Shown here in pieces: positions 1-31,769 of a stretch of 64,000 bases of DNA (position 1 is the stretch's first letter; every line of letters starts with the position of its first letter). Source of the DNA: a virus. The notes under the pieces are model-generated. The model saw only the letters and a list, made by a program, of their open reading frames with translations. It searched no databases and was not told where the DNA came from. Where the stretch lies: positions 105,659 through 169,658 of IMG/VR virus record IMGVR_UViG_3300043411_001575; one strand, 5' to 3'. The translations under genes were made by a program, and so were the position numbers.

Positions 1-35
1 AGTACAAAAGCCCACATTGCACAAAGCCGATGTTA
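1..35 (+). repeat. Partial attC-like site H0 (right arm only, cut by window edge)
   Basis: TGTTA at 31-35; GTTAGCCGCAGTA is complementary to TATTGCGGCTAAC at the end of cassette 1. Confidence 0.7.
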
Positions 36-766
36 GCCGCAGTACATTCTATCAGGGTGATTGTCTTGTGGAAATGGATAAGATTTCCGATAAAAGTGTG
101 GATATGATTTTATGTGATTTGCCTTATGGAACAACAGCTTGCAAATGGGATAGTGTCATTCCTTTTGAGCCACTTTGGAAGCAATATGAAAGGATTATAA
201 AAGATAACGGGGCAATAGTTTTGACAGCTTCGCAACCATTTACAACAATATTAATAAGCAGCAATATAAAGTTATTCAGGTATGAATTAATTTGGCAAAA
301 GGATAAGGCAAGTGGGTTTTTAAATGCTAATAAAATACCATTGAAAGCACACGAAAACGTTTTAGTATTTTACAAAAAGTTACCTACATATAATCCGCAA
401 AAAACCATTGGTGGGCTGCAAAGGAAAAGGACAAGGAAAAAACCAACGCATGAGGTTTTAGGTAAAACTGGTGTAAATGAAAAACACGTTATTTGGCAAG
501 ATAACACAAGATACCCTATAAGTGTTTTAGAATTTGATGTAGATACTATTAACCACAGTTTGCACCCTACTCAAAAACCAATAGCATTAATGGAATATTT
601 AATAAAAACCTACACCAACGAAGGAGAAACAGTTTTAGATAACTGTATGGGTTCAGGAACAACTGGTGTGGCTTGTAAAAAAACAGGTAGGCACTTTATC
701 GGAATAGAAAAGGATGAAAAGTATTTTGAAATTGCCGTTAGCAGGGTGTCTGCGTATTGCGGCTAA
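17..766 (+). CDS. N6-adenine/N4-cytosine DNA methyltransferase (beta class), cassette 1; true start probably upstream of window
   Basis: DLPY motif IV, HPTQKP, DNCMGSGTTG motif I; frame open to the window edge; stop codon is the TAA of TAAC. Confidence 0.92.
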   Translation: MHKADVSRSTFYQGDCLVEMDKISDKSVDMILCDLPYGTTACKWDSVIPFEPLWKQYERIIKDNGAIVLTASQPFTTILISSNIKLFRYELIWQKDKASGFLNANKIPLKAHENVLVFYKKLPTYNPQKTIGGLQRKRTRKKPTHEVLGKTGVNEKHVIWQDNTRYPISVLEFDVDTINHSLHPTQKPIALMEYLIKTYTNEGETVLDNCMGSGTTGVACKKTGRHFIGIEKDEKYFEIAVSRVSAYCG

Positions 767-878
767 CGTTTTGCAGATAGGCGTTGTTGCCTCACAAATG
801 ATTGATTGAAACACTAAATTTAATAATATGGGAAATGATAATTTAAAAACGGAAAGCAATAACGCCAATGTGCTGTTA
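764..878 (+). repeat. attC-like hairpin H1
   Basis: TAACG-tttt-GCAGATAGGCGTTGTTGC ... GCAATAACGCCAATGTGC-TGTTA. Confidence 0.85.
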
Positions 879-1169
879 GGTGCTGGGTTTGTTTACTTGG
901 TAGAATGTTCATCAGGAAGTTGGGATAGTTACCATTGGTGGGTTGGAGGAATATTTGAAAAGCAAGAAGATGCTGATAAATATGCACAAAGCTTGAATGA
1001 TGAAAACAAACGATTAAAAGAGGTTGAATGCTCAATAAAAACACCATTTGAAGATATGACTGATGAAGAAGAAACGGAGTATTACAGGTGGTGGAATGGT
1101 AACAATGATGCTATGGAATGGAATGGTGCTAAAGTTAAGCAGTACCCCATAAACAAACCTTGCACCTAA
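828..1169 (+). CDS. Hypothetical protein, cassette 2
   Basis: 113 aa ORF; ATG inside the H1 loop, stop in the next TAAC. Confidence 0.8.
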   Translation: MGNDNLKTESNNANVLLGAGFVYLVECSSGSWDSYHWWVGGIFEKQEDADKYAQSLNDENKRLKEVECSIKTPFEDMTDEEETEYYRWWNGNNDAMEWNGAKVKQYPINKPCT

Positions 1170-1254
1170 CGATTGGGTGTATGAGAAGGTTTGCTTAGAT
1201 GAACTTTTAAATTTACACAGAATTTTATAGCAAACTTTCTTATACACCTTGTTA
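1167..1254 (+). repeat. attC-like hairpin H2
   Basis: GGTGTATGAGAAGGTTTGCT / AGCAAACTTTCTTATACACC arms between TAACG and TGTTA. Confidence 0.85.
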
Positions 1255-1317
1255 TGTACAGGCACGGTAAATTACCGATGAACTTAATTAAATGAACGAA
1301 ACTAATAATTTTTAAAA

Positions 1318-2058
1318 ATGTGGGATGGCAAATATGCTTTTGAAAAAAGCAAAATAATACAAGGAGATAGTTTGGATAAAATAAAATATATACCTAATGG
1401 CAGTATTGACTTAATTGTAACTGACCCACCGTATAAAATGACGAAACAAGGTAATTCTTGCAGACCAAATTATATGAAAAGTGGAATGGGTGAAAACTTA
1501 TTTGATGGTGAATTACCAAATACAAAAGAATGGATGAAACTTTGTTTTGATAAACTAAAAGACGATGCCCATTTCTATGTATTTACCAATATAAATAGTT
1601 TGCACGAATACCTTGATGTTGCAAAAGAATGTGGATTTAAACTACATAATATTATAAGTATGATTAAAGATACCAAAATGCCTAATAGATGGTATTTAAA
1701 ATACACTGAATTTGTATTGTTTTTTAGAAAAGGTAAAGCGTTTCCAATAAACGATATGACAAGTAGAGATTATGAATTTGTTGAAACACCAACATTAAAA
1801 AATGGCAAAATACATATATCACAAAAACCATTGAATTTTATTGAAAAACTAATAACAAATTCATCAAATGAAGGTGAAATATGTTTGGATTTATTTAGTG
1901 GAAGCGGAACACTTGCAGAAGCCTGTATAAATACAAATAGAGATTTCATTATTATAGAGAAAAACCCAAATGACTTTGAAAAAGGCAAAGAAAGGGTGGG
2001 AAAAATTTTTAAAAATTATGGAATTAACATACAACCTTTAATCGAAGCACAAATGTAG
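1318..2058 (+). CDS. N6/N4 DNA methyltransferase, cassette 3
   Basis: TDPPY, HISQKP, DLFSGSGT motifs. Confidence 0.92.
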   Translation: MWDGKYAFEKSKIIQGDSLDKIKYIPNGSIDLIVTDPPYKMTKQGNSCRPNYMKSGMGENLFDGELPNTKEWMKLCFDKLKDDAHFYVFTNINSLHEYLDVAKECGFKLHNIISMIKDTKMPNRWYLKYTEFVLFFRKGKAFPINDMTSRDYEFVETPTLKNGKIHISQKPLNFIEKLITNSSNEGEICLDLFSGSGTLAEACINTNRDFIIIEKNPNDFEKGKERVGKIFKNYGINIQPLIEAQM

Positions 2059-2068
2059 TGCTTGTACA

Positions 2069-2155
2069 TAACGTTTTCGGGCTTGGCGAAGGTGGGCTTG
2101 TAGGATGCTCAATTTTAGCACAATGTGTCTGCCCACTTTTGCCAAACCCGTGTTA
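2069..2155 (+). repeat. attC-like hairpin H3
   Basis: CGGGCTTGGCGAAGGTGGGC / GCCCACTTTTGCCAAACCCG arms. Confidence 0.85.
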
Positions 2156-2252
2156 TATGAAGTGCCGACTTATTAAGCAGAATTTTAAATTGAAACTATA
2201 AACAGAAAAACAAAAAAGAAAAAAAGCGTAGGGAATTTTAAAAACAAACAAT

Positions 2253-2519
2253 ATGGAAAAGAATTTTATTGAAAAAGCAGAAAAAGAAATTGGTAGAAAA
2301 TTTGGTTTTTTCATCAGATGTGATGATAAAAACAAACCAACAGAAGTATTAACCGATATGTACTTTGAACTATGGGAAACAGAAAAGATGAACGAGATTT
2401 TATCTTTATGCGAAACACATAATCTTAAATACGATTTTGGTTTAGAAAGTTTTGATACCAAAATAGATGCTATTGAACAAGAAATATGTATTGTTTCAAC
2501 TAATTGCGAAAATTCATAA
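2253..2519 (+). CDS. Hypothetical protein, cassette 4 gene 1
   Basis: 88 aa ORF with A-rich leader; stop abuts the next ATG. Confidence 0.65.
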   Translation: MEKNFIEKAEKEIGRKFGFFIRCDDKNKPTEVLTDMYFELWETEKMNEILSLCETHNLKYDFGLESFDTKIDAIEQEICIVSTNCENS

Positions 2520-2520
2520 A

Positions 2521-3264
2521 ATGGAAGCAAATACGATTTACAAAGGCGATTGCTTTGAACTTATAAAGCAAATAACAAAAGCAGATAACGTCAAACTTAT
2601 TATTACAGACCCACCATATTTACATAATAAAGGAGGTGGGAAAACATCGGGAACAGAGGGTAAAAGTTCAATAGCTAATAGCCCTATGTATAAATTCGAT
2701 TCATTTATGATGGAAGATATGAGTTCTTTTTTAGAGGAAGATGTTTATAATCTATTAGATGAATATAAAAGAATAATGACAAAATTAAACTGCTTTATAT
2801 TTACTAATGACACTTTGATACCGTATTATACAATGTGGGCAGTTAAAAACAATAAAAAGTTTACAATTTTAACTTGGGAAAAACCATTGTCGATTTTAAA
2901 CAGAAATAGATTTAGTCAGAATTTAGAATATGTTGTGAGGATTTACGACAATGGAACTGCACTTAATTTAATAGATTTAGAAGCATATCCCGAAAAGAAA
3001 AACTACTACTCAAAAAACAGAAGGTTAAATTCGCCTACAAATAAGATACACCCAACCCAAAAACCATTAGAATATCTACTTGGATTGATTGAGTTAAATA
3101 CAAATGAAGGCGATTTAGTATTAGATACGTTTTTTGGTAGTGGACAAACAGGTAAGGCTTGTCAGATTTTAAATAGAAATTATATCGGTTTTGAAAGAGA
3201 AGAAAAGTATGTTGAATTATCAAATAAATATTTACAACAAGGATTTGAAAAAACACTATTTTAA
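2521..3264 (+). CDS. N6/N4 DNA methyltransferase, cassette 4 gene 2
   Basis: TDPPY, HPTQKP, DTFFGSGQTG; start MEANTIY chosen at 2521 (ORF track starts at 2467). Confidence 0.9.
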   Translation: MEANTIYKGDCFELIKQITKADNVKLIITDPPYLHNKGGGKTSGTEGKSSIANSPMYKFDSFMMEDMSSFLEEDVYNLLDEYKRIMTKLNCFIFTNDTLIPYYTMWAVKNNKKFTILTWEKPLSILNRNRFSQNLEYVVRIYDNGTALNLIDLEAYPEKKNYYSKNRRLNSPTNKIHPTQKPLEYLLGLIELNTNEGDLVLDTFFGSGQTGKACQILNRNYIGFEREEKYVELSNKYLQQGFEKTLF

Positions 3265-3339
3265 AAGTGTGGTGGCTTTTTTCTTTTTGTTTTTCATTAA
3301 CGGAACTTCAATTGGAAACGGTCAGCAAGGCATTTCATA

Positions 3340-3459
3340 TAACGTTCGAGGGCTTGGCGAAGTGGCTGAACCTGAAGCTAAATAGAATTACTAAACTTAA
3401 AAATTAAGAACGAATGATTGATATAATTACTGAACAGCCATTTTGCCAAACCCGTGTTA
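3340..3459 (+). repeat. attC-like hairpin H4
   Basis: GGGCTTGGCGAAGTGGCTG / CAGCCATTTTGCCAAACCC arms; near-identical to H5, with the same arms as H12. Confidence 0.85.
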
Positions 3460-4223
3460 GTGGCAGTACTTTTGTGAATGCTGATTGCTTTGATGTTTTT
3501 CCTTTTATCGAGGATAAATCAATTGATGCTATTATTTGCGATTTGCCCTATGGAACAACTCAATGTAAATGGGATAGCATTATTAATTTAGATTTGATGT
3601 GGACGCAATACAACAGAATAATAAAAGATAACGGCATTTTTATATTATTTGCAGATGAGCCTTTTACAAGCATATTAATAAATAGTAACATTAAAAATTT
3701 TAAGCAAAGAATAACTTGGGATAAACAAATAGCAGGAGGTCATTTAAACGCTAAAAAAATGCTATTGAAAAGAACTGAGGATATATGCTTATTTTCAAAT
3801 GTTAAAAATGGAAAATATACATACAATCCTATTTTAAAAGATAAGGATTTTAAAAACATAAGAGATAGAAACGGAGAAAACAGAAAAGAGTTTAAAGGCG
3901 GTTATGTAGGGAAACACAATAGTACGTTGAGTAAAGAGCATAACAATAAAAAAAGTTACCCAGATAATTTAATTTCCTTTTCAGCAAGAAAAGGCGATTG
4001 TAACCCTATAAATAGATTACACCCAACACAAAAACCACTTGAATTGATGGAATATCTTATAAAAACCTATACTAATGAGGGCGATTTGGTTTTAGATAAC
4101 ACAATGGGTTCTGGAACAACAATTTTAGCTGCTATAAAAAATAATAGAATTGGTATAGGAATTGAAAAGGAAAAACAATATTATGATGTCGCTGTTCGTA
4201 GGGCTTCGGAGTATTGCCACTAA
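3414..4223 (+). CDS. N6/N4 DNA methyltransferase, cassette 5
   Basis: DLPY, HPTQKP, DNTMGSGTT; ATG in H4 loop. Confidence 0.92.
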   Translation: MIDIITEQPFCQTRVSGSTFVNADCFDVFPFIEDKSIDAIICDLPYGTTQCKWDSIINLDLMWTQYNRIIKDNGIFILFADEPFTSILINSNIKNFKQRITWDKQIAGGHLNAKKMLLKRTEDICLFSNVKNGKYTYNPILKDKDFKNIRDRNGENRKEFKGGYVGKHNSTLSKEHNNKKSYPDNLISFSARKGDCNPINRLHPTQKPLELMEYLIKTYTNEGDLVLDNTMGSGTTILAAIKNNRIGIGIEKEKQYYDVAVRRASEYCH

Positions 4224-4340
4224 CGTTATCGGGCTTGGCGAAGTGGCTGAACCCGAAGCTAAATAGAATTACTAAACTTAAAAATTAAAAACGAATGTCA
4301 AATAGAATTACAGAACAGCCATTTTGCCAAACCAGTGTTA
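4221..4340 (+). repeat. attC-like hairpin H5
   Basis: Same arm family as H4. Confidence 0.85.
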
Positions 4341-5053
4341 GTGGCAGTACTTTTGTAAATGCTGATTGCTTTGATGTTTTTCCTTTTATTGAGGACAAAT
4401 CAATTGATGCTATTATTTGCGATTTGCCTTATGGAACTACTGCTTGTAAGTGGGATACAATTATACCATTTGAGCCGCTATGGGAGCAGTACAAGCGAGT
4501 GATTAAACCTAATGGTGCGATAGTGCTGTTTAGCAAAGAGCCATTTACGTGCATATTGAGAACAAGTGAAATTAAAATTTTTAAGCAACCTCTTATTTGG
4601 GATAAGGTTAATTCAGATAACCCTATGCAGGCAAAAAGAAGACATCTAAACACTACGGAGGATATTTCTATCTTTTACAAATCTCAATGTACTTATAACC
4701 CACAAGGTCTTATAAAGTCAAATATAAAAAAGGGAGGGAAGCAAGGGATAATGATTGATAGTAGTGGTAAGGAAAAAGAACAATATATTCAAGAGAATAC
4801 CAATTATCCGAAAAATATATTAGTGTACCCGATAGAAAGAAAGGCGGTTCATCCAACTCAAAAACCCGAAGCACTCCTGCAATACTTAGTCAAAACCTAC
4901 ACTAACGAAGGCGATATAGTCTTAGATAACTGTATGGGTTCAGGTACAACAAATCTTGCTTGTTTAAAATTAAATCGCAAATCAATTGGAATAGAAAAGG
5001 AAAAACAATATTACGATGTCGCTGTTCGTAGGGCTTCTGAGTATTGCCACTAA
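4295..5053 (+). CDS. N6/N4 DNA methyltransferase, cassette 6 (paralog of cassette 5)
   Basis: DLPY, HPTQKP, DNCMGSGTT; ATG in H5 loop; ends near-identical to cassette 5. Confidence 0.92.
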   Translation: MSNRITEQPFCQTSVSGSTFVNADCFDVFPFIEDKSIDAIICDLPYGTTACKWDTIIPFEPLWEQYKRVIKPNGAIVLFSKEPFTCILRTSEIKIFKQPLIWDKVNSDNPMQAKRRHLNTTEDISIFYKSQCTYNPQGLIKSNIKKGGKQGIMIDSSGKEKEQYIQENTNYPKNILVYPIERKAVHPTQKPEALLQYLVKTYTNEGDIVLDNCMGSGTTNLACLKLNRKSIGIEKEKQYYDVAVRRASEYCH

Positions 5054-5107
5054 CGGTATCCGTATAAGGGAAGTGCGAGGAACGAGCATTTACTTTATAC
5101 GGTGTTA
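5051..5107 (+). repeat. attC-like hairpin H6 (shortest, 57 bp)
   Basis: CCGTATAAGGGAAGTGC / GCATTTACTTTATACGG arms. Confidence 0.85.
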
Positions 5108-5198
5108 GCAAAGTGCGTTGGGATTGTGTGTCGGCTCGTTCCAAAACCATTTATTTTCTTTTTTTTGGGGAGGTTTTGAAAACTTTTTTACTAAAATA

Positions 5199-5229
5199 CT
5201 TGCTAAATGACAATTTATATTTATCTTTG
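5199..5229 (+). promoter_or_regulatory. Bacteroidota sigma70-type promoter inside cassette 7
   Basis: TTG at 5200-5202, 19 nt spacer, TATCTTTG at 5222-5229 (TAnnTTTG -7 consensus). Confidence 0.65.
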
Positions 5230-5260
5230 AACCATATTAATAATCTAAAAACAAAACAAA

Positions 5261-5572
5261 ATGATTTACAAAAAAACACACTATGATAAAAAGGCTTTAA
5301 ACAGCCACGTTTCAAAAATAAAAGATGCAGGAGGAAATGCAATAGTAGATGGATTATCGGTTAGATATTTCTATCCATCCAATACCATTGGTGAAATTAG
5401 ATTAAAGCATAAGAGTTGGAAGAAAACAGAAAGACAAGAAGTTTTGTTTATTGTTTTAGTTTCTGAAAAAGATAAAACGCCATACTATTCAGCAATGTAT
5501 TTCCCGAAATGGGTTGAAATAGGAGGTGTTTATGGAAACAAAAATGACATAACAATAATCGAAAAGTTTTAA
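5261..5572 (+). CDS. Hypothetical protein, cassette 7 gene 1
   Basis: 103 aa ORF downstream of the promoter, A-rich leader. Confidence 0.75.
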   Translation: MIYKKTHYDKKALNSHVSKIKDAGGNAIVDGLSVRYFYPSNTIGEIRLKHKSWKKTERQEVLFIVLVSEKDKTPYYSAMYFPKWVEIGGVYGNKNDITIIEKF

Positions 5573-5574
5573 CT

Positions 5575-5730
5575 ATGAAACTGTCTGTAACAGAATATGC
5601 AAAACAGCTTGGCGTAACTCGTCAAGCCGTTTTGTTACAAATTAAAGAAAAAAGGTTGCCTAAAAATGTGAAGGTTGAAAAAATCGGAAATACTTATTCT
5701 TTAACTGTGGGTGGGCAAAAAAGAAAATAA
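5575..5730 (+). CDS. Small helix-turn-helix DNA-binding protein (excisionase/MerR-like), cassette 7 gene 2
   Basis: Read by hand, absent from the ORF track: MKLSVTEYAKQLGVTRQAVLLQIKEKRLPKNVKVEKIGNTYSLTVGGQKRK (51 aa). Confidence 0.7.
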   Translation: MKLSVTEYAKQLGVTRQAVLLQIKEKRLPKNVKVEKIGNTYSLTVGGQKRK

Positions 5731-5749
5731 ATGGTTTTGGAATGTTTGC

Positions 5750-5839
5750 TAACGTATGGTGCTATGAGCAGGTTTGCCTTGCAGAAATGTTCAAATTTAG
5801 CACTAATGTTATTGGCAAACTTGCTTATAGCACGTGTTA
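5750..5839 (+). repeat. attC-like hairpin H7
   Basis: GTGCTATGAGCAGGTTTGCC / GGCAAACTTGCTTATAGCAC arms. Confidence 0.85.
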
Positions 5840-5875
5840 GCGGTAGTTTATTTTTCAAAAATTAAAATTAAAAAT

Positions 5876-6334
5876 ATGGGAACACAAGTAGTAGGAGAAA
5901 GTAACAGCGTTGAGTATAGCACTCCGTTGAAAATAGTACAGCCATTGATAAACGAATTTGGCTTAACAAGAGATGTTTGTGCAAGTGAATTAAACCACAA
6001 ACTACCCGATTATTGGACAAAAGAAGATAATTCACTTGCTATGAATTGGAAAGGTAATTGTTGGATGAACCCACCATTTAGCAGAGATTTGAATAAGTGG
6101 GTAAAGAAAGCGTGTAATGATGCTGAAAGGTTTGGAGGAACGAAAGTTTGTTTAATACCTGTAAGAAGCAATACAAAATGGTGGGCGGAAGTTTGTGTAA
6201 AAGCAGAAATTCGTTTTATCAATGGCGAAGTAAATTTTAATGATGAAGAACGTGGACTTTGGTTGCCGATGTGTATTATCATTTTCGGTGAGAAGGCAAA
6301 GGTTGGCACGTTCTCTGTCTTAAATTACCGCTAA
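5876..6334 (+). CDS. Phage-type DNA N6-adenine methyltransferase (Dam family), cassette 8
   Basis: STP, DVCAS, WMNPPF, LIPVRSNTKWW, IRFINGEVNF motifs; start at MGTQ. Confidence 0.88.
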   Translation: MGTQVVGESNSVEYSTPLKIVQPLINEFGLTRDVCASELNHKLPDYWTKEDNSLAMNWKGNCWMNPPFSRDLNKWVKKACNDAERFGGTKVCLIPVRSNTKWWAEVCVKAEIRFINGEVNFNDEERGLWLPMCIIIFGEKAKVGTFSVLNYR

Positions 6335-6404
6335 CGTTTTGCAGCTAACAGAAGGCGGCTTTTTAGCAAACTTAGTACTTGCCGCTTTTTGTTAGCTGCT
6401 GTTA
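6332..6404 (+). repeat. attC-like hairpin H8
   Basis: GCAGCTAACAGAAGGCGGC / GCCGCTTTTTGTTAGCTGC arms. Confidence 0.85.
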
Positions 6405-6462
6405 GTGGACTGTTAAATTATTAAAAAAGAAAAAAGGAGGGGTGCGAGGGCATCTAAACATA

Positions 6463-7299
6463 ATGGACAAGAAGAAACTTTTAATTGCTTTTAGTGGTGG
6501 AGAAACATCTGCATTTATGGCTCAATGGTTATGGAAACATAAACAAGGTGAATACGAAATGTTATTTGCTTTTGCTAATACTGGGGTTGAGAATGAAGAA
6601 ACTTTAAACTTTGTGCATAAATGCGAAGTTGAATTTGGTATAAATGTTAATTGGTTGGAAGCAGTAATAGACCAAGAGAAAGGGAAAGGCACAAGGCATA
6701 AGATTGTTGATTACAAAACAGCAAGTAGAAACGGACAACCATTTGAGGAACTGATAAAGAAATACGGTTTACCAAACCAACAGCGATTTCACTGCACAAG
6801 GGAGTTAAAAAATAATACATTGATTTCATTTGCAAAAAGTATTTGGGGAAAGGAAAAGTATTATTTAGCAATAGGAATTAGAGTAGATGAATTTGATAGG
6901 ATGAATGATAAATTTAAAGAGTTGAGAATTGTTTATCCGTTAATTTCAGAAATTCCAATGACAAAGCCAAAGATTAATTTTTGGTGGAAACAACAACCGT
7001 TTAGATTAGAATTAAAAGGTTATCAAGGGAATTGTGTTACTTGCTACAAAAAAAGTGATAAAAAATTGTTTCAGATAGCTAAAGAAAATCCAAGTGCATT
7101 TGATTTCTTTGATAGAATGGAAGAACAATATGGAGAAGGTAAGTATCAATTTTTTAGGCAGAACCGAACAGCTAAACAAATTATGGAACAAGCTAAAGAA
7201 TGGAATGGCAATGTAACCGATGACGCACAAAATGTTACAATACAAACAGATTTATTTAGCGAAAGTTGTGAAGCATTTACAAGCGATTGCGGTGTTTAA
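6463..7299 (+). CDS. PAPS-reductase-like / adenine nucleotide alpha-hydrolase family protein, cassette 9
   Basis: FSGGETS PP-loop, FANTGxE, CTRELK, IGIRxDE, YPL, GNCxxC motifs. Confidence 0.85.
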   Translation: MDKKKLLIAFSGGETSAFMAQWLWKHKQGEYEMLFAFANTGVENEETLNFVHKCEVEFGINVNWLEAVIDQEKGKGTRHKIVDYKTASRNGQPFEELIKKYGLPNQQRFHCTRELKNNTLISFAKSIWGKEKYYLAIGIRVDEFDRMNDKFKELRIVYPLISEIPMTKPKINFWWKQQPFRLELKGYQGNCVTCYKKSDKKLFQIAKENPSAFDFFDRMEEQYGEGKYQFFRQNRTAKQIMEQAKEWNGNVTDDAQNVTIQTDLFSESCEAFTSDCGV

Positions 7300-7368
7300 C
7301 CTTTTCACAGTTTTGAAAAAACTGAAAGAGTGCGTGGGCTTTTTCTTTTTTAATAATTTAATTGCCAC

Positions 7369-7494
7369 TAACGGTTCGCAGGTATATTTAGTTGCGGACT
7401 TAGTAACACAAAACTTTAAATTTAGAAGAAATGAAGAAAGAAGAACAAAACTCGAATGAACCACAAAAACCGCAATTGAATATACCTGCTGTTA
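7369..7494 (+). repeat. attC-like hairpin H9
   Basis: GCAGGTATATTTAGTTGCGG / CCGCAATTGAATATACCTGC arms. Confidence 0.85.
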
Positions 7495-7787
7495 GTTGCA
7501 GTGTTGTTCATTGCAAGAAAGCACCTTATGATGTTTATATTGGAAGACCAAGCAAATGGGGTAATCCATTCACACACATAAAAGACGGTAAAACACTTGC
7601 AAAACATATTGTAGGTAGTAGAGATGAAGCAGTCGAAGCATATCTTGAATGGATTACCAACGGAGAAGGTAAACATTTGATGAGTGATTTACACGAATTG
7701 AAAGATAAGGTGCTTGGTTGTTGGTGTCATCCACAATCTTGTCACGGAGATGTACTTTCGGAGTTGGTTGCTAAACATTGCAACTAA
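7431..7787 (+). CDS. DUF4326-like protein, cassette 10
   Basis: VYIGRPSKWGNPF and LGCWCHPQSCHGDVL motifs; ATG in H9 loop. Confidence 0.85.
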   Translation: MKKEEQNSNEPQKPQLNIPAVSCSVVHCKKAPYDVYIGRPSKWGNPFTHIKDGKTLAKHIVGSRDEAVEAYLEWITNGEGKHLMSDLHELKDKVLGCWCHPQSCHGDVLSELVAKHCN

Positions 7788-7909
7788 CGTTTTGCAGGTA
7801 TATTTAGTGCCGAATTTAAAAACGAAAAATATGAATTTTATACAAAAGTTATTTAAAAGCAGAAAGGTTAATGAACCGATGAACTCGGCATTGAATATAC
7901 CTGTTGTTA
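7785..7909 (+). repeat. attC-like hairpin H10
   Basis: GCAGGTATATTTAGTGCCGA / TCGGCATTGAATATACCTGT arms. Confidence 0.85.
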
Positions 7910-8133
7910 TACCTCGTTTATCTTCTGATTGGATAAAATTTGAGGATGAAAAACCACCACACGAAGTAGTATTAGCTGCTTGCGATACTTATGATTGTGG
8001 ATGGACTATGGATACTGTTTGGTGGTATGAAGATAAGCAATGTTGGATGGTTACTGGTGCAGTTAAAAGTACAGAAGCACATTTACCATACACACATTGG
8101 CGTAAATTACCACCATTTCCAAATGAGGTATAA
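7831..8133 (+). CDS. DUF551-like phage protein, cassette 11
   Basis: WIKFEDEKP...THWRKLPPFP pattern; ATG at 7831 in H10 loop. Confidence 0.7.
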   Translation: MNFIQKLFKSRKVNEPMNSALNIPVVIPRLSSDWIKFEDEKPPHEVVLAACDTYDCGWTMDTVWWYEDKQCWMVTGAVKSTEAHLPYTHWRKLPPFPNEV

Positions 8134-8256
8134 CGTATTGGTGCTATACGAAGGAGGCGATTATTAGCACTAAATTTGATGCGGAGTACAAATGTTTGTT
8201 TAACCACAAATGTTTCTGCGGAGTACCAAACCGCCTCTTTTGTATAGCACGTGTTA
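8131..8256 (+). repeat. attC-like hairpin H11
   Basis: GTGCTATACGAAGGAGGCG / CGCCTCTTTTGTATAGCAC arms; TGCGGAGTAC occurs twice in the loop. Confidence 0.85.
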
Positions 8257-8320
8257 TACGCTGGCACGGTTGATTAAACGAGAAACTTAAATTGAAACAC
8301 AAAACAAAATTTTTATTAAA

Positions 8321-9106
8321 ATGAGCGAGGGCAAAAAAGAAATATTATTAGGAGATTGTTTGGAACTTATGAAGGATATACCAAACGGAAGTATTGATAT
8401 GATACTTTGTGATTTACCATACGGAACAACTGCTTGTAAATGGGATAGTGTAATACCTTTTGAACCACTTTGGAAAGAATATGAAAGGATTATAAAGACC
8501 AATGGTGCTATTTTATTGTTTGGAACACAACCATTCACAACAGAACTAATATTGAGCAATAGAAAATTGTTTAAGTATGATATGGTTTGGTGCAAAGACA
8601 AACCTGCTGACTTCGGAAATGGCAATATAAAACCATTAAGATACCACGAAACAATTTGTGTATTTTATACCAAAACGCCAACATACAATAAGCAATTTGA
8701 AAGCAGAAAAGGAACTGGCTATTCAAGGGCTAAATATCCTGTAAATTACATAAACAATTCAGAGCATAAATTTGGAATGAAAGATGGTTCTTTTGATTAT
8801 GCAAATAAAGACAGAATGATTGGAACTGTAATAGATATTACAACTGGTGCAAGAGGTAGCATAAAACACCCAACAGTAAAGCCCGTTCCTTTATTTGAAC
8901 ATTTAATCAAAACATATACCAACGAAGGTGAATTGGTTTTAGATAATACAGCAGGAAGCGGAACAACTGCAATTGCTTGTTTGAATACTAAAAGGCAATT
9001 TATAGTAATGGAAAAAGAACAAAAGTATTACGATATGATTTTAAAAAGGGTGGGAGATTTTAATAAAAATTTTGAACCGCAAACTCTCTTTGGAAACGAA
9101 ATGTAG
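8321..9106 (+). CDS. N6/N4 DNA methyltransferase, cassette 12
   Basis: DLPY, HPTVKP, DNTAGSGTT. Confidence 0.92.
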   Translation: MSEGKKEILLGDCLELMKDIPNGSIDMILCDLPYGTTACKWDSVIPFEPLWKEYERIIKTNGAILLFGTQPFTTELILSNRKLFKYDMVWCKDKPADFGNGNIKPLRYHETICVFYTKTPTYNKQFESRKGTGYSRAKYPVNYINNSEHKFGMKDGSFDYANKDRMIGTVIDITTGARGSIKHPTVKPVPLFEHLIKTYTNEGELVLDNTAGSGTTAIACLNTKRQFIVMEKEQKYYDMILKRVGDFNKNFEPQTLFGNEM

Positions 9107-9116
9107 TGCTTGCGTA

Positions 9117-9236
9117 TAACGGTATCGGGCTTGGCGAAGTGGCTGAACCGAATGTTTGATAGAAGCACAAAACTTAATAATTAAAAACGAATGATTGATA
9201 GAATTACTGAACAGCCATTTTGCCAAACCCGTGTTA
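9117..9236 (+). repeat. attC-like hairpin H12
   Basis: Same arm family as H4/H5. Confidence 0.85.
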
Positions 9237-9985
9237 TGTGCAGGGCGGTTGATAACCTTGAACTCCTTTTGTCGCAACCTGATGAAAGTGTAGATTTGAT
9301 TTACTGTGATATTCTTTATGGAACGGGTAGGAATTTCGGTGATTACCAAGACTTAAAACCAATTAGAAGCGAAATAGAAAGCCACTACCTACCAAGACTT
9401 ATTGAAATGAAACGAGTTTTAAAAAGTACAGGTAGTATTTATTTGCAAATGGATACACGAATAAACCATTGGATGCGCATTTTGATGGATGATGTTTTTG
9501 GGTATGAAAATTTCCGCAATGAAATAGTATTTGGATATAATGGGGGTGGTGTTTCAAAGAATTGTTATCCTAAAAAACACGACATAATCTTGTTTTATTC
9601 TGTTAGTGATAAATACTATTTTAATAACGAAAAGAAACCATACTCCGCTTTAAGTTCACAAAACTTATTGTGGAAACATAGGAATAAAAAAAGACTTGAT
9701 GAACTTAATGATGGCACACCTGTAACCGATGTATGGACTGATTTGAAGTTTAAAATAAATTACCAAGAGGAAGAATATACAGGATATGCTACCCAAAAAA
9801 CAAAAGAATTATTGAGCCGTATTGTTTTAGCTTCCACAAATGAAGGCGATACAGTTGCAGATTATTATTTAGGTAGTGGCACAACGGCAGTAGTTTGTAA
9901 GGAACTGAACCGAAATTTTATAGGTTGCGATATTAATCCAAAAGCTATTGAAATAACAAATGCTCGTTTAGATGCACTTTCGTAG
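9191..9985 (+). CDS. N6/N4 DNA methyltransferase (Mod-like), cassette 13
   Basis: YCDILY (variant motif IV), FRNEI, YATQK, DYYLGSGTT; ATG in H12 loop. Confidence 0.88.
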   Translation: MIDRITEQPFCQTRVMCRAVDNLELLLSQPDESVDLIYCDILYGTGRNFGDYQDLKPIRSEIESHYLPRLIEMKRVLKSTGSIYLQMDTRINHWMRILMDDVFGYENFRNEIVFGYNGGGVSKNCYPKKHDIILFYSVSDKYYFNNEKKPYSALSSQNLLWKHRNKKRLDELNDGTPVTDVWTDLKFKINYQEEEYTGYATQKTKELLSRIVLASTNEGDTVADYYLGSGTTAVVCKELNRNFIGCDINPKAIEITNARLDALS

Positions 9986-10044
9986 CTTTGCACATAACGT
10001 GTATTTAATGGAATGGAGTGTCAAAATCAATTAGTTACATAATA
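9985..10044 (+). other. Putative attI-equivalent primary recombination site
   Basis: Last TAACG (9995-9999) is not followed by a hairpin and lies directly 5' of the recombinase. Confidence 0.55.
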
Positions 10045-10914
10045 ATGGAAGATAAAATTAACAAATTAAGGAGGGAGTTATCCATAAGGAAATATGCTCC
10101 TAATACAGTTGAAACATATTGTTCATGTCTTAAAGTTATTTTTAGTAAATGTGGAATTAATCCAAGTATTGATTCTTTAAAGTCATATTTATTAACTATT
10201 GAAAATAGAAACTACCATAAACAAATAGTCGCTACATTCAGAAACTACTCTGAATTTGTATTAGGTATTAAATTATCTTTAAACGATGTTCCTTATCCTA
10301 GAAAACAAGAAAGTTTGCCTGAAATATATTCAGTTGAAGAGGTTTCTAAATTAATTAATATTCCTAAAAATTTAAAACATCAATCTATAATTTTTTTATT
10401 GTATGGATGTGGACTTAGAGTTAGTGAATTAATTAATTTAAAATTAACTGATATAGATAGTGATAGAATGGTTGTTAACATCCGAAAAGCAAAAGGAAAT
10501 AAGGACAGGCAAATAATGTTGGATGAATCTTTACTTAAATTACTTCGTGATTATTACACTGAATATAAACCAATAAATTATTTATTCAATGGTCAAAAAA
10601 AAGACCAATATAGTGACAGGTCTGTAAATGAACTTCTTAAATATTGGTCTAAAAAAGCAGGTATAAAAAAACATATTCATGCTCATTTATTAAGGCATTC
10701 ATTCGCTACCCATCTTTTAGATGCAGGAATAGACATGGCTATAATTCAAAAGTTATTAGGTCATTCAAACATAAAAACAACGCAAATTTATGCAAAAATT
10801 TCAACCAAATTAATATCTCAAATTAAATCTCCATTATCAAACATTAAAATCAATTCAAATGAAAAATCTAGTAATATTATTCCTTTGTGGAATTCTGATA
10901 GGTTTCCAAACTAA
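10045..10914 (+). CDS. Tyrosine recombinase (XerD/integron-integrase-like, without the IntI I2 insertion)
   Basis: YGCGLRVSE (R), KGNKDR (K), HLLRHSFATH (HxxR), LGHSNIKTTQIY (H, Y); N-terminal SAM-like domain; ORF track starts at GTG 10018. Confidence 0.93.
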   Translation: MEDKINKLRRELSIRKYAPNTVETYCSCLKVIFSKCGINPSIDSLKSYLLTIENRNYHKQIVATFRNYSEFVLGIKLSLNDVPYPRKQESLPEIYSVEEVSKLINIPKNLKHQSIIFLLYGCGLRVSELINLKLTDIDSDRMVVNIRKAKGNKDRQIMLDESLLKLLRDYYTEYKPINYLFNGQKKDQYSDRSVNELLKYWSKKAGIKKHIHAHLLRHSFATHLLDAGIDMAIIQKLLGHSNIKTTQIYAKISTKLISQIKSPLSNIKINSNEKSSNIIPLWNSDRFPN

Positions 10915-10975
10915 GACCAAAAAGCAATTTAACTTTAAATCTCATTCAAAATTAACTAAAGCTGATTCCTAAAAC

Positions 10976-11737
10976 GTGCTAAAATTAGAAGATAAAGATT
11001 TCAATGACTATGTTACCCATCTTAGTGAATCAGGGTCAAGATTTATTGTAGACGAAAAAAGGAACACTAAAAGTATAATTATTAGTGGAAAATATTTTGC
11101 ATTTACAAAAAACAAAAACCATTTAGCTAAAGGTGAAGAAAAAAAAGAAATGTTATCTCTATTTAGTCAGGTAGGAAAATCTGTTTCAAACTACATAAAA
11201 CTAAATGAGTTTGATGTAGAAAAAATAAAGCAGATTCATCCGCAAACTCAAGTTGACAGAAAAAAATATGAGAAGATGAAAGTAGGAGCTGAGTTCTTCT
11301 ATGTTGATATTTCCCATTGTTTTTGGAGAATTGGTTTTTTAAAAGGATACATTAATCCAAAGCTATACAACAAAGTATTAAAGAACCCAAGTTTAAAGCA
11401 ATTCAGGAACATGTCCCTTGCCATAATTAAAGCAGCTCGCTCTAGGTACTATTTTGATAATGGCAAACTAATAAATAAAGTTACTGAAGAAAGAACCCTG
11501 TGGGAGAATGTATATGATAACATCAGGTTCACCTGCTATAACTTTTTAGGAGAAACAAAGAGTGTTGCAGGAAATAAATTCGTCGCTTACAAAACAGATG
11601 GTATAATGGTCACTAGACCCGCTTTAAAGAAGATTAAAGATGCTTTCACTGCGGCAGGATTCGAATACAAGGTTATCACCTGCTTTAAAGTTGATGATAA
11701 AAACTACTCTTATGGAGGTCTAATTAAGAAGATTTAG
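10976..11737 (+). CDS. Small family-B DNA polymerase palm-like protein
   Basis: YVDISHCF (motif A-like), KQFRNMSL (motif B-like) and YKTDGI (motif C-like) in the correct order; no exonuclease domain. Confidence 0.5.
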   Translation: MLKLEDKDFNDYVTHLSESGSRFIVDEKRNTKSIIISGKYFAFTKNKNHLAKGEEKKEMLSLFSQVGKSVSNYIKLNEFDVEKIKQIHPQTQVDRKKYEKMKVGAEFFYVDISHCFWRIGFLKGYINPKLYNKVLKNPSLKQFRNMSLAIIKAARSRYYFDNGKLINKVTEERTLWENVYDNIRFTCYNFLGETKSVAGNKFVAYKTDGIMVTRPALKKIKDAFTAAGFEYKVITCFKVDDKNYSYGGLIKKI

Positions 11738-20098: not shown

Positions 20099-21268
20099 AT
20101 GTTAACCTATAAAAGAAAACTAAAAATAACTAAGGCTCAGGAGGAAAGAATTTCTTCATGGATTGGTGCGTGTCGTTTGGTTTACAATATGGGCTTAGAA
20201 ATTAAAAAAGAAACGTGGAAAAATAAACAGCAAAATGTTTCTGCTTATGATTTATCGAAACAACTTCCCTCAATAAAAGACGTAGAATGGGTAGCTGATG
20301 TTCCTGCTCAATGCCTTCAGAATTCATTGGAACGACTTGATAGGTCATATAAAAACTTCTTCCGTAATTTTAAATCAGGAGGCGGATTTCCAAAATTTAA
20401 ATCAAAAAGAGATTATAAGTCTATGTTGTTTAAACAAGGTGATTTAAATGCAAAGACACCTTTAATAACTCTTAGTAAAAACAAAATAAAACTTCCTAAG
20501 CTTGGTGAGGTATCATTTTTCAAAGATAAATCACCGATTATAGGTAAAATAAAAACAGTAACAATAAAGATAGAACCAACAGGATTTTTCTTGTACATTG
20601 TCTGTGACGGAGTTAGTAAAAGCATCTCAAACCCTGACGAAAGCCAAGTCATAGGGATTGACATGGGAGTAGCTAACTTCTGTTCAGACAGCAACGGAAA
20701 CTTCATCGAAAACCCAAGACACTTCAATAAATATGAAGATAGGCTTCGTATTGAAAATAGGAGTTTAGCTAGAAAAAAAAGAGGAAGTAACCGTTGGAAA
20801 AAACAAGCGAAAAAGCTATCACTTTTGCATCACAAAATATCTAATATTAGGAAGGATTTTTTGCATAAAGAATCCACCAAAATGGCTAAAAATTTCCATA
20901 CTATTTATTTGGAAGATTTGAATATTTCGAATATGTCGAAACGTCCAAAACCAAAGCAGGATGAGAATGGTAAGTTTATTCTAAATGGTTCTTCTGCAAA
21001 ATCAGGATTAAACAAATCAATCCTAGATGCAGGTTGGGGAATGTTTAGGGATATGCTCGAATACAAAACAAATGTAGTTCGAGTAGACCCAAAATACACC
21101 TCTCAAAAGTGCAACGAATGTGGCGAAAAAGATTCAAAGAATAGGTTATCACAAAGCGAATTTGTTTGTTTAAGCTGCGGTCACATCAGTCATGCTGATA
21201 CAAATGCAGCGAAAAATATTTTGAGCAAGGGCATTGCTCTCAATCGTGAACGTAAGGCACTAGTCTAA
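20099..21268 (+). CDS. tnpB: RNA-guided endonuclease TnpB (IS200/IS605 family, no tnpA)
   Basis: N-terminal HTH (YKRKLK...GACRLVYN), GFPKFK, RuvC-I GIDMG, RuvC-II LEDL, zinc finger CNECG/CLSCG, RuvC-III HADTNAAKNI. Confidence 0.93.
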   Translation: MLTYKRKLKITKAQEERISSWIGACRLVYNMGLEIKKETWKNKQQNVSAYDLSKQLPSIKDVEWVADVPAQCLQNSLERLDRSYKNFFRNFKSGGGFPKFKSKRDYKSMLFKQGDLNAKTPLITLSKNKIKLPKLGEVSFFKDKSPIIGKIKTVTIKIEPTGFFLYIVCDGVSKSISNPDESQVIGIDMGVANFCSDSNGNFIENPRHFNKYEDRLRIENRSLARKKRGSNRWKKQAKKLSLLHHKISNIRKDFLHKESTKMAKNFHTIYLEDLNISNMSKRPKPKQDENGKFILNGSSAKSGLNKSILDAGWGMFRDMLEYKTNVVRVDPKYTSQKCNECGEKDSKNRLSQSEFVCLSCGHISHADTNAAKNILSKGIALNRERKALV

Positions 21269-27946: not shown

Positions 27947-28687
27947 ATGAAGCGACTTGTCGAGACAGACAGATGGAAAGACTCTTTTTTCGTTGAACTA
28001 CATCCCAATGCAAAGCTATTGCTTTCATATATGTATGATAATTGTAATGAGGCAGGATTCATAGATTTAAATTGGGTTATATGGTCTAGTCAATTAAACA
28101 TGCAACAAGAATTCATTAAAACTAGCTTAATAGCACTATCAAGTTTATTAGTTAGCGATAAGAAAAAGAAATTATTTATTAAGGATTTCCTGAAGCATCA
28201 AAGAAAATTACCTCTTATTAAAGGAAATGAAGAGTCAGATTTAATTATAGAAAAACTTCAATCTAATCTAAAAAAATTCAATGATGCGCCTGAGATACTT
28301 GAATTACTTAATTCAGTTAAGGTTAAAGTTGAATTTGAAGAAGAAAAAGTAAAGAGTGTAAAAAAAAATAGAACTCAAAGCGTAAAATTCACTCCTCCTT
28401 CTTATGAAGATTTTGAAGCTTATTACTTATCAGAAAGTCCTGATACAGGAACAGAGAATATTAAAGAACTTTTCGACCACTACGTAGGTGTTGGATGGGT
28501 AACAAAAGGAGGAACACCTGTAAAGGATTATCAAGCAACTATTAGAAACGCAATAAGAAGAGCTGAGAAAAATGAGATAAGTAAAGCAAAACAAGAATAT
28601 GTTTCTAAATCATTCGGAAAAGAAAAAAAACAATCTAGGACTGATATAACTTTTTCTTTGGCTGATTCTATGAAAAAAGAAAATTAA
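27947..28687 (+). CDS. Phage replication initiator-like protein
   Basis: N-terminal wHTH-like W.DSFF.EL...KLL..YM.DNCN.AG; C-terminal FTPPS...FDHY...GW...KDYQAT. Confidence 0.65.
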   Translation: MKRLVETDRWKDSFFVELHPNAKLLLSYMYDNCNEAGFIDLNWVIWSSQLNMQQEFIKTSLIALSSLLVSDKKKKLFIKDFLKHQRKLPLIKGNEESDLIIEKLQSNLKKFNDAPEILELLNSVKVKVEFEEEKVKSVKKNRTQSVKFTPPSYEDFEAYYLSESPDTGTENIKELFDHYVGVGWVTKGGTPVKDYQATIRNAIRRAEKNEISKAKQEYVSKSFGKEKKQSRTDITFSLADSMKKEN

Positions 28688-28695
28688 TAATAATT

Positions 28696-29571
28696 ATGGA
28701 ACAAGAAAAAAATAACAATTTAATTGTGAGTGAAAAGTTAATGAATCATCCTACACTAACAATTAGTGATATTCAAAAATCAACTATTCCCGAACTAACT
28801 AAGCAAGTGATAATTGCATCTCAAAATTTCCCTAAAATAAGAACATTAGATGAAAAAGTAGTAAAGCATAGTCTTATTGATTTAATACTTGCTATAATTT
28901 GGGAATCAGGTCACAATTTAGATGAAAAAGAGCAGACTGTTTTAGTTACCTATATGATTGAGGAGATTAAAAATGATTTCTCTAACCTAACATTAGAAGA
29001 GGTTAAAATAGCGTTAAAAAAAGGATTAAGAGGTTATTATGGTCAAGTATTTGGGATGAATGTCAAAATGATGTATTCATGGCTAGAAGGATACGTTTCA
29101 GAAACAAAAGCCGAATCATTAAAATACCTTACTATAATTGAGAAAAAAGAACCTGAAGAAAAATCAGATGACCATAAAAGGTATTTACATTTCGAATGGC
29201 TGAAATTATGTATTAATGCTTATGAAGAATACAAAGAAACAGGTAAAACAAGTTTTGTTGATGCTAAAAATAATCTCTATGATTACATCAGGTACAAGCT
29301 AAAATTAGCTGACCTAACAAAAGAAGAAGTTGATAATATTTGGCAATATGCAGTACTTGAATATAAATCAAATCACTCAATTGAAAAATCTAAAAACAAA
29401 TATGAATTAGTAGATTTTAGGATAGCAATAAAAAAATTTCAAGATGGCGATTCTACTGAACAAGAAAAAGTAAAATTTATAGCAAGGAAAATCGCCCTCA
29501 ATAAACTTTTTGAAAAGATTAAAGGGGCGAATATTGATTTTAGAGCGAAAATAATTGAATTCGAAAAATAA
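28696..29571 (+). CDS. Replication-associated protein (helicase loader/inhibitor-like)
   Basis: LTLEEVKIALKKGLRGYYG motif; position after the initiator gene. Confidence 0.45.
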   Translation: MEQEKNNNLIVSEKLMNHPTLTISDIQKSTIPELTKQVIIASQNFPKIRTLDEKVVKHSLIDLILAIIWESGHNLDEKEQTVLVTYMIEEIKNDFSNLTLEEVKIALKKGLRGYYGQVFGMNVKMMYSWLEGYVSETKAESLKYLTIIEKKEPEEKSDDHKRYLHFEWLKLCINAYEEYKETGKTSFVDAKNNLYDYIRYKLKLADLTKEEVDNIWQYAVLEYKSNHSIEKSKNKYELVDFRIAIKKFQDGDSTEQEKVKFIARKIALNKLFEKIKGANIDFRAKIIEFEK

Positions 29572-29847
29572 TTATTCTTTTACAATACTTGGAGATTTAA
29601 CATTTCTCCATTTAGTACATTTACCCTTAGTATCTTCTGCCTCACATACTTTTGTATATCCTGCAACATTTGATTTTTCTTCTGATTTAGAACTAATCAA
29701 ATACCCAACTACTGCACCTACTGCGAGACCTATTCCTGCAAACATTAACATTCCTTTAGTAGGCTTTTTCATTAAGAATGCTACACCTGCTAATCCTGCT
29801 GCACCGATGCCCGCACCGATTGCCATTGGTTTTATTTTTTCTTTCAT
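29572..29847 (-). CDS. Small glycine-zipper membrane protein
   Basis: Two Gly/Ala-rich hydrophobic helices; paralog of 46727-47026. Confidence 0.75.
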   Translation of the reverse strand: MKEKIKPMAIGAGIGAAGLAGVAFLMKKPTKGMLMFAGIGLAVGAVVGYLISSKSEEKSNVAGYTKVCEAEDTKGKCTKWRNVKSPSIVKE

Positions 29848-29872
29848 TTTTTTGGTTTTTGTTATTTTTTAT

Positions 29873-30580: not shown

Positions 30581-30584
30581 TTTT

Positions 30585-31046: not shown

Positions 31047-31047
31047 T

Positions 31048-31749: not shown

Positions 31750-31769
31750 GGCTGTTATTTTTTTTAATA

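Follow-up and report, generated by a model that had tools for sequence, protein, structure and literature searches.

An integron-like cassette array beside an Xer-type tyrosine recombinase gene in a large phage of Flavobacteriia

The DNA described here is a 64,000-nt stretch (the window) comprising bases 105,659–169,658 of the IMG/VR virus record IMGVR_UViG_3300043411_001575, which is 169,658 bp long with an estimated completeness of 82%. The window opens with the recombinase-proximal end of an array of small gene cassettes, in which co-oriented genes alternate with hairpins that have a TAAC core at the 5′ end and a GTTA core at the 3′ end, and which stops directly before the gene for a tyrosine recombinase. 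The window edge cuts this array, and 28 kb more of it lie upstream in the record. The whole array contains at least 45 co-oriented hairpins across 38 kb: 44 of the form TAAC...GTTA and one TAAC...GTTG, all on the + strand at genome positions 77,777–114,894. A degenerate site (TAAG...GTTA, genome ~77,250–77,364) is probably the left array end; the last TAAC is at window position 9995, and the recombinase start codon (ATG) follows 50 nt further on. An earlier reading of this DNA, made without database searches (the sequence-only reading), had proposed an integron-like array in a virus of Bacteroidota served by a tyrosine recombinase that is not IntI. That proposal is supported by the variation in cassette order, the integron-integrase model scores below cut-off and the specific co-occurrence of recombinase and hairpins described below.

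All features of the array in the window are on the + strand. It begins with the 3′ arm (positions 1–35) of a hairpin that starts 89 nt before the window (genome 105569–105693). This edge-cut cassette encodes an N6/N4 DNA methyltransferase (2–766; PF01555, 9e-34) in an open reading frame (ORF) that starts within the preceding hairpin, outside the window, and stops on a TAA that is also the TAA of the next TAAC. The attC-like hairpin at that TAAC (764–878, 115 nt) contains the ATG (828) of the following ORF, which encodes 113 residues without a family match (828–1169) and has its stop codon inside the next TAAC. A hairpin of 88 nt (1167–1254) precedes an N6/N4 DNA methyltransferase gene (1318–2058), and one of 87 nt (2069–2155) precedes a two-ORF cassette (2253–3264) encoding an 88-residue protein without assignment (2253–2519) and an N6/N4 DNA methyltransferase (2521–3264). 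Two 120-nt hairpins come next. The one at 3340–3459 contains the ATG (3414) and first 15 codons of an N6/N4 DNA methyltransferase ORF (3414–4223), the one at 4221–4340 contains the ATG (4295) of another (4295–5053), and both ORFs have their stop codons inside TAAC. Downstream lie a 57-nt hairpin (5051–5107) with two small ORFs of 103 and 51 residues that lack family matches (5261–5730), a 90-nt hairpin (5750–5839) with a Dam-type N6-adenine methyltransferase gene (5876–6334), and a 73-nt hairpin (6332–6404) with a gene for a 3′-phosphoadenosine-5′-phosphosulfate (PAPS)-reductase-like protein (6463–7299).

Four hairpins remain. Those at 7369–7494 (126 nt) and 7785–7909 (125 nt) contain the start codons, at 7431 and 7831, of a DUF4326 ORF (7431–7787) and of a 100-residue ORF without a family match (7831–8133), each ending inside TAAC. 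The hairpin at 8131–8256 (126 nt) precedes an N6/N4 DNA methyltransferase gene (8321–9106), and that at 9117–9236 (120 nt) contains the ATG (9191) of the final cassette ORF, again an N6/N4 DNA methyltransferase (9191–9985). The attI-like site (9995–10044) consists of the terminal TAAC and the ~46 nt after it. It is followed by the gene for the Xer-type (XerA-like) tyrosine recombinase (10045–10914; 289 residues), which has the catalytic residues R-K-H-R-H-Y and lacks the IntI insertion.

Hairpins were located with a stem finder whose criterion is a TAAC...GTTA stem; the core is therefore a condition of the search and not an outcome of it. At a score of at least 10, the finder returned 42 + strand hairpins in the 170-kb record, nearly all at genome 77,777–114,894, as against 1–4 per genome in five mononucleotide shuffles, so that their number is far beyond chance. 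The 12 complete hairpins that the sequence-only reading had placed in the window were all recovered at the same TAAC starts and with lengths of 57–126 nt, and its invariant TAACG...TGTTA holds at both ends in 12/12. The 5′ half of the common plan comprises the TAAC core, a G with four mostly T-rich unpaired bases, and a stem of ~20 bp; the 3′ half comprises a loop of 5 to ~85 nt, the stem partner, 1–2 unpaired bases and the GTTA core. The unpaired bases form an asymmetric internal loop of 5 nt (G+NNNN) versus 1–2 nt, the 5′/3′ offset being mostly 5/1 or 5/2. An alignment of 15 hairpins of 87–97 nt contains compensatory double changes at 14 of 17 stem pairs; one T-A pair is invariant, and another pair is G·T in 14/15.

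A wider set of 183 unique hairpins, from the window phage and related phages, displays the same anatomy, with TAAC followed by G in 96%, GTTA preceded by T in 93%, and lengths clustering at ~48–60, 87–91, 120 and 124–128 nt. Mismatches in this set are one-sided (325 pairs of G in the 5′ arm with T in the 3′ arm versus 11 A·C), and the + (top) strand forms the more stable fold in 158 of the 183. Several hairpin sequence families repeat within the array. The sequence-only reading had described the hairpins as devoid of canonical L boxes with extrahelical bases; this is correct in that there are no conserved single-base bulges, yet the sites do possess a conserved asymmetric internal loop, an invariant T-A pair and conserved G·T wobbles. 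A search of window positions 1–11000 against Rfam gave no relevant family, the sole match with E ≤ 1 being a chance hit to mir-5014 (22.5 bits; gathering score, 101). Loops with the Bacteroidota −7 motif TAnnTTTG are no more frequent than in shuffled sequence (2/123 versus 0–4).

The recombinase gene is located at the end of the phage cassette array, not at a replication terminus, and is the sole tyrosine recombinase (PF00589) gene in the record. Its product contains a Phage_integrase domain with the full catalytic set. A spacing of about 23 residues between KGxKDR and YLF had been taken in the sequence-only reading to mean that the IntI-specific I2 insertion is missing, and both the count and the conclusion stand: 23 residues separate KGNKDR from YLF, and the 25 residues at positions 170–194 lie opposite 68 residues (180–247) of VchIntIA. 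The alignment with IntI4 splits into two stretches, and over its whole length the protein is collinear with XerA of Pyrococcus abyssi (4a8e). Among curated models, XerA_Arch scores best (206 bits versus a cut-off of 220), and XerD and XerC score far under their cut-offs. Both integron-integrase models fall below cut-off and match in two separate stretches (TIGR02249, 155 bits versus 265; PRK15417, 108 versus 435). All 25 of the 25 clade members give the same ranking, with XerA best.

The boundary between array and recombinase gene is sharply defined. Relatives with 76–80% identical recombinases share the ~46 nt downstream of the terminal TAAC, and the cassette ends before it differ. This design, with constant non-hairpin sequence after the last TAAC and variable cassettes before it, is present in two clades; in several clades the array stops 50–80 nt before the recombinase start codon, and the switch from variable to constant sequence falls exactly at TAAC. 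A motif, AAAATCAAT(T/A)A, was also observed 15–35 nt before the recombinase start in the window (10020–10040) and at two other recombinase loci (L047, ~9960–9985; L021, ~9965–9985); the clades having it are only 42–48% identical in recombinase protein. Its opposite strand, TGATTTTG, is near the Bacteroidota −7 box, and the motif could be a candidate binding site or a promoter directed into the array.

The flanks of the hairpins are complementary across cassettes. When the bases after GTTA are compared with the reverse complement of those preceding the next TAAC, the mean anchored score is 6.0, with at least 6 in 26 of 44 pairs; within single hairpins the corresponding score is 1.2 (1/44 pairs) and for mismatched pairs it is 1.0, in agreement with the sequence-only reading, which had matched each GTTA flank to the next TAAC and not to that of the same hairpin. 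A conserved wobble, T(−7)·G(+7), is commonly part of this pairing. Because the cassette ends are complementary, circularisation of a unit would lengthen the TAAC/GTTA helix by 10–28 bp. Integron cassettes likewise have complementary ends next to the core, over 7 nt instead of the 10–28 nt found here, and reasoning from end complementarity is reportedly how Hall, Stokes and colleagues first located the integron crossover.

Natural recombinants place the crossover inside the 5′ TAAC. A single 499-bp unit separates the 99.9%-identical Flavobacterium phages mumin6-1 and mumin6-3; it is composed of a hairpin and its downstream ORF (gp008), with TAACGTT at both borders. Phage filifjonk9-1 contains three additional units with TAACGTT borders, and one additional unit in this phage is placed exactly at the terminal TAAC, beside non-hairpin sequence. 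Duplications in the window-phage array begin at TAAC and extend through the hairpin into the following ORF; among 102 self-matches in the array, 18 start at TAAC, 18 span GTTA and 5 span TAAC. In reshuffled arrays, the sequence up to TAAC is that of the upstream unit, and from the next base on it is that of the downstream unit. All resolved breakpoints are within the 4-nt TAAC, including those at attI-like junctions and at junctions of unrelated hairpins, and TAAC alone is common to the attI-like site and the hairpins.

A crossover after GTTA, the model of the sequence-only reading, is ruled out by these recombinants, since insertions, deletions and shuffles break at TAAC and the hairpin stays with the downstream ORF. 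With the exchange inside TAAC, a cassette takes the form [C-G-hairpin + ORF(s) + TAA], and its hairpin travels with the ORF that follows, not with the one before. Gene structure fits a unit that extends from TAAC to TAAC: the ORF starts inside its own hairpin in 17 of the 44 units, and in 10 the following TAAC supplies the TAA stop codon.

Cassettes are gained, lost and reordered among close relatives and shared horizontally among more distant ones. Eight IMG/VR contigs with recombinase genes at least 99.9% identical have one common sequence after the last TAAC (TAAC/TATTATATGTAAAC...), and four different cassettes lie directly before this shared attI-like sequence. Splitting the eight arrays at TAAC and clustering the units at ≥95% identity gave the orders ...D J K L A C B E F; ...H I B C D G A; O P Q; and S, in which cassettes A–D are common to different contigs but ordered differently. 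Array content and order vary even among near-identical relatives, the opposite of the fixed arrangement that would speak against the sequence-only reading. The Dam unit (window 5750–6335) is 94% identical to a unit at locus L072, with the homology extending no further than the core at either end, despite only 47% identity between the recombinases of the two phages. Several methyltransferase units are 80–89% identical to units of Muminvirus, the matches again beginning at TAAC. Window 3265–3340, the untranslated tail of a cassette that stops at 3342 (AAAAGTGYGGTGGCTTTTTTCTTTTTG...CATTTCATATAAC), is nearly unchanged at ~230–347 of L043, where it forms the cassette end next to the attI-like site; the recombinase of this phage is 42% identical. 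A comparable G-rich/T-run tail lies at window 7300–7368, behind the ORF there.

The contigs also tend to end at the array. For the 81 viral recombinase loci defined below, a contig end lies at most 500 bp upstream of the recombinase gene in 15 (including L009, L010, L018 and L025) and downstream of it in 1, and the L018 contig begins exactly at TAAC. Assemblies seem to break at the array, as would be expected from array differences within a population.

The hairpins are specifically associated with this recombinase clade. A scan of IMG/VR with a 25-member clade alignment yielded 80 viral loci, to which one from an earlier scan (L011) was added; the recombinases of these 81 loci are 40–79% identical. 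Upstream of the recombinase and on its strand there are 159 hairpins (3.9 per 10 kb), and the other three combinations of side and strand hold 6, 7 and 7 (0.09–0.17 per 10 kb), a ~40-fold enrichment in the upstream, co-oriented position. At least one hairpin is present in 48 of the 61 loci with ≥1 kb of upstream sequence, and at least two in 33. The 1.16 Mb of sequence at 80 control loci from bacteria and archaea, with recombinases ≤46% identical, contain 9 hairpins (0.04 per 10 kb and strand). The co-occurrence anticipated by the sequence-only reading is therefore found in the viral loci and is near zero in the bacterial and archaeal set.

Three sets of loci in sequenced genomes and isolates are of note. 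As an exception in the bacterial and archaeal set, a Candidatus Saccharimonadales contig from a metagenome-assembled genome (JAYRNA010000016.1; L103) contains two co-oriented hairpins, at 136–223 and 2754–2840, upstream of a 43%-identical recombinase. This is the sole non-Bacteroidota genome locus having two such upstream hairpins, and it may be a phage contig placed in the bin. In Flavobacterium sp. GCA_046293665.1 (JBKBOL010000002.1; L021), a chromosomal 48%-identical recombinase has a Na+/H+ antiporter gene on one side and phage-like genes on the other (regions 1400–5300 and 9900–10830), with four such hairpins 5–9 kb upstream of it. The similar site before the recombinase, directly after the antiporter gene, reads CAAC/TACTATATGTAC...AAAATCAATAC, and the locus may represent a prophage integrated via its attI-like site or a chromosomal array. 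The Polaribacter phages Freya_1 to Freya_10 (MT732463–MT732472; L013) are ten isolates of one species, with genomes of 44.0–48.9 kb, in which co-oriented small ORFs precede a 31%-identical integrase. Upstream of the Freya_10 integrase, the search for TAAC/GTTA stems gave no hairpin; these phages may use a different core or a different mechanism.

The array cargo is dominated by DNA methyltransferases. Pfam assigns 15 N6_N4 methyltransferases together with Dam, D12 and MT-A70 enzymes. Orphan DNA methyltransferases number ~20 and are accompanied by further DNA-modification genes; the PAPS-reductase-like protein, DUF4326, DUF551 and many small unknown ORFs make up the other cargo. No restriction enzyme was found in the cassettes of the array. 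We read the cargo as a putative exchangeable anti-restriction and anti-defence arsenal. In Muminvirus isolates, the presence of one methyltransferase tracks the efficiency of plating on Flavobacterium LMO6, as reported by Nilsson et al., who do not mention hairpins or recombinases (PMC7077304). The large phage of the window shares nucleotide-level sequence with Flavobacterium phages, has integrase homologues in Polaribacter and Cellulophaga phages and has a G+C content of ~30%, which together place its host in Flavobacteriia.

Two observations concern the window outside the array. GC skew and AT skew both switch sign near 30,000 (region ~28000–32000), where gene orientation changes from + to −; this could be an origin, a terminus or just a transcription switch. 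An ORF of 389 residues at 20099–21268 (+), 9 kb from the array, strongly matches PHROG transposase families (phrog_506, E 6e-108) and looks like an insertion sequence (IS)-type transposase within the phage genome.

The array resembles integrons in many respects. Small co-oriented cassettes are bounded by variable, imperfect hairpins (about 48–130 nt) with AAC...GTT cores and a crossover in the core; an attI-like site where different cassettes abut lies beside the recombinase gene; order and content vary among close relatives; and the two strands differ in how well they fold. Taken from the reverse strand, the layout of recombinase, attI-like site and G/TTA...TAAC-hairpin-G/ units reproduces the classical integron order, with the ORFs antisense. 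It differs from them in several others. Strand asymmetry arises here from the 5-nt versus 1–2-nt internal loop and G·T wobbles, not from extrahelical bases. Integrons have the cassette promoter (Pc) at the attI/intI end and a divergent intI, whereas here cassette ORFs and recombinase are all on the + strand with the recombinase downstream; in the direction of the genes, each hairpin precedes its own ORF and often supplies the start codon. The present arrays are known so far almost only from phage contigs. Finally, the XerA-like recombinase is without the IntI-specific insertion, which has been described as essential to integron function (PMC8138268). The system is integron-like in its working and lacks three defining integron features: the IntI insertion, the extrahelical bases and the ORF polarity relative to Pc.

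Other exchange systems share parts of this design. In the integrative mobile element exploiting Xer (IMEX) CTXφ, Xer recombination acts on a folded single-stranded hairpin, and the whole phage genome enters one chromosomal dif site via host XerCD. The pdif modules of Acinetobacter plasmids are exchangeable gene modules flanked by 28-bp double-stranded, XerC/D-dependent sites in alternating orientation. Both differ from the long direct-repeat hairpin arrays described here, in which the phage encodes its own dedicated recombinase with an attI-like site next to it. In T4-type phages, promoter early stem-loops (PeSLs) similarly bound small accessory modules that are gained, lost and reshuffled among close relatives (PMC2839356, PMC4122927). 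PeSLs consist of promoter and terminator motifs and are thought to use homologous recombination with no dedicated recombinase (PMC2839356, PMC4122927); the present sites are distinguished by breakpoints in a 4-nt core, self-complementary cassette ends, linkage to one tyrosine recombinase clade and the lack of −7 motif enrichment.

One member of the hairpin family has been encountered before. Qi et al. (2023) described a two-site cluster of attC sites lacking an integron integrase (CALIN), with methyltransferases, in Polaribacter phage P12002L (PMC9892861). The primer sequence for P12002L_attC1 in their Table S3 has the same TAAC-G-NNNN-stem...GTTA anatomy, and we find more such hairpins around methyltransferase and Mom-like genes of this phage. 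P12002L_attC1 was predicted by HattCI, only P12002L_attC2 by HattCI plus Infernal, and P12002L_attC1 was the one site in their assay without verified IntI1 recombinants (PMC9892861). The suggestion in the sequence-only reading that standard attC models may miss these sites is thus partly right: HattCI did flag P12002L_attC1, yet the Infernal-supported call was limited to attC2 and IntI1 did not recombine attC1. That study treats the cluster as a classical integron component, without the hairpin family, recombinase clade, attI-like site, TAAC crossover or large arrays (PMC9892861). In the full-text literature covered, which left subscription journals outside, the hairpin family, recombinase clade, attI-like site and large arrays are not described beyond the P12002L CALIN.

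The data show the site anatomy with its covariation, the position of the crossover, the gain, loss, reordering and horizontal sharing of cassettes, and the specific association with one recombinase clade; how the cassettes move is proposed as follows. The single-stranded sense (top, +) strand would fold into the hairpin, and the adjacent Xer-type recombinase would cut within TAA/C on the 5′ arm and exchange one strand. Recombination between two hairpins would release a circular cassette whose two ends pair, and recombination between a hairpin and the attI-like site would insert a cassette beside the recombinase gene. Integron integrases likewise act on a folded strand of attC, the bottom one, which is cut in the AA/C of its 5′ box; here, TAA/C stands at the hairpin 5′ end on the + strand, the strand that also folds better. 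The junctions share 4–5 nt, too short for a two-strand exchange over a 6–8-bp overlap region, and this fits a single-strand exchange resolved by replication. We regard it as probable that the array is the integron-like cassette platform of a large Flavobacteriia phage, seen here at its recombinase-proximal end, with the adjacent recombinase as catalyst. We also lean, with less assurance, towards a second integron lineage that is separate from, or a deep sister to, the IntI integrons: phage-borne, Xer-type, with sense-strand sites that carry translation starts and with an anti-defence pool shared among Flavobacteriia phages.

Several points weigh against this reading. That the recombinase drives the array we infer from association and junction anatomy, and its role as catalyst, the folded single top strand as substrate and the existence of circles are proposed steps of the model. 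Thirteen of the 61 loci with sufficient upstream sequence have no TAAC/GTTA hairpin, although the finder detects that core only. The G·T bias is equally expected from selection on RNA structure, because the mRNA has the same sense as the top strand. The ORFs are directed towards the recombinase, so that a newly inserted cassette would be promoter-distal, and no canonical Bacteroidota −7 motif that would account for cassette expression was found in the loops. In addition, Muminvirus and P12002L carry arrays but no recombinase homologue; there, either the enzyme acts in trans or a different enzyme is responsible.

The last point is also an argument for another enzyme, whether from the host, a co-infecting phage or an HUH-type single-strand transposase, that moves cassettes at TAAC while the adjacent recombinase serves as a lysogeny integrase or dimer resolvase. 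Cassette polymorphism in these phages without a homologue, the prophage-integrase-like position of the 48%-identical homologue at L021, flanked by the Na+/H+ antiporter gene and by phage-like genes, and the transposase gene in the window at 20099–21268 all agree with such a scheme. It is nevertheless unlikely, given that arrays in several clades end 50–80 nt before the recombinase with the variable/constant junction at TAAC beside a clade-specific site, that the ~40-fold hairpin enrichment near recombinase relatives is absent around more distant Xer-like genes, and that the adjacent gene encodes the only tyrosine recombinase in the record.

Two further explanations dispense either with a site-specific system or with its novelty. 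The hairpins could be regulatory stem-loops, acting in termination or RNA processing, with modules shuffled by homologous or microhomology recombination as for PeSLs. T4-type phages acquire, lose and replace PeSL-flanked modules, which form minicircles (PMC2839356, PMC4122927), and the sense-strand location of the hairpins, their tolerance of G·U-type pairs and the recurrence of several hairpin families in the array would suit this explanation. We consider it very unlikely, because homologous recombination would spread breakpoints along the shared repeats instead of confining them all to the 4-nt TAAC, because the 10–28-nt complementarity of cassette ends is not predicted by regulatory stem-loops, and because the hairpins are closely linked to one recombinase clade; the −7 promoter motif is also not enriched in the loops. 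An ordinary integron, with a diverged IntI and attC sites recognisable by standard tools, is scarcely credible. AAC/GTT cores, imperfect hairpins of 57–130 nt, an attI-like site by the recombinase, cassette shuffling, the partial TIGR02249 match (155 bits) and the HattCI call of one P12002L hairpin as attC (PMC9892861) point in its direction. It is contradicted by the 25 residues in place of 68 in VchIntIA and the collinearity with P. abyssi XerA, by scores of 155 versus 265 (TIGR02249) and 108 versus 435 (PRK15417) with XerA best in 25/25 clade members, by the 5-nt versus 1–2-nt internal loop in place of conserved single extrahelical bases, by ORFs antisense to the classical site polarity, and by the lack of IntI1 recombinants from P12002L_attC1 (PMC9892861).

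The integron-like reading bears on how gene capture is understood. Integrons are the textbook gene-capture machine and are defined by IntI, whose insertion is thought essential for recognition of folded attC sites; if a plain Xer-type recombinase follows the same logic here, integron-style capture would not depend on that insertion. If the system is homologous to integrons, it may show a form of the transition from Xer to IntI. Searches centred on IntI would overlook such arrays. Cultured phage–host pairs with cassette polymorphism exist (Muminvirus on Flavobacterium LMO6 and LMO9, and the Polaribacter phages), making the mechanism directly testable. For the phages themselves, such arrays would provide modular retooling against host defences, with a bearing on host range among the Flavobacteriia of marine and fresh waters, the recyclers of algal blooms.

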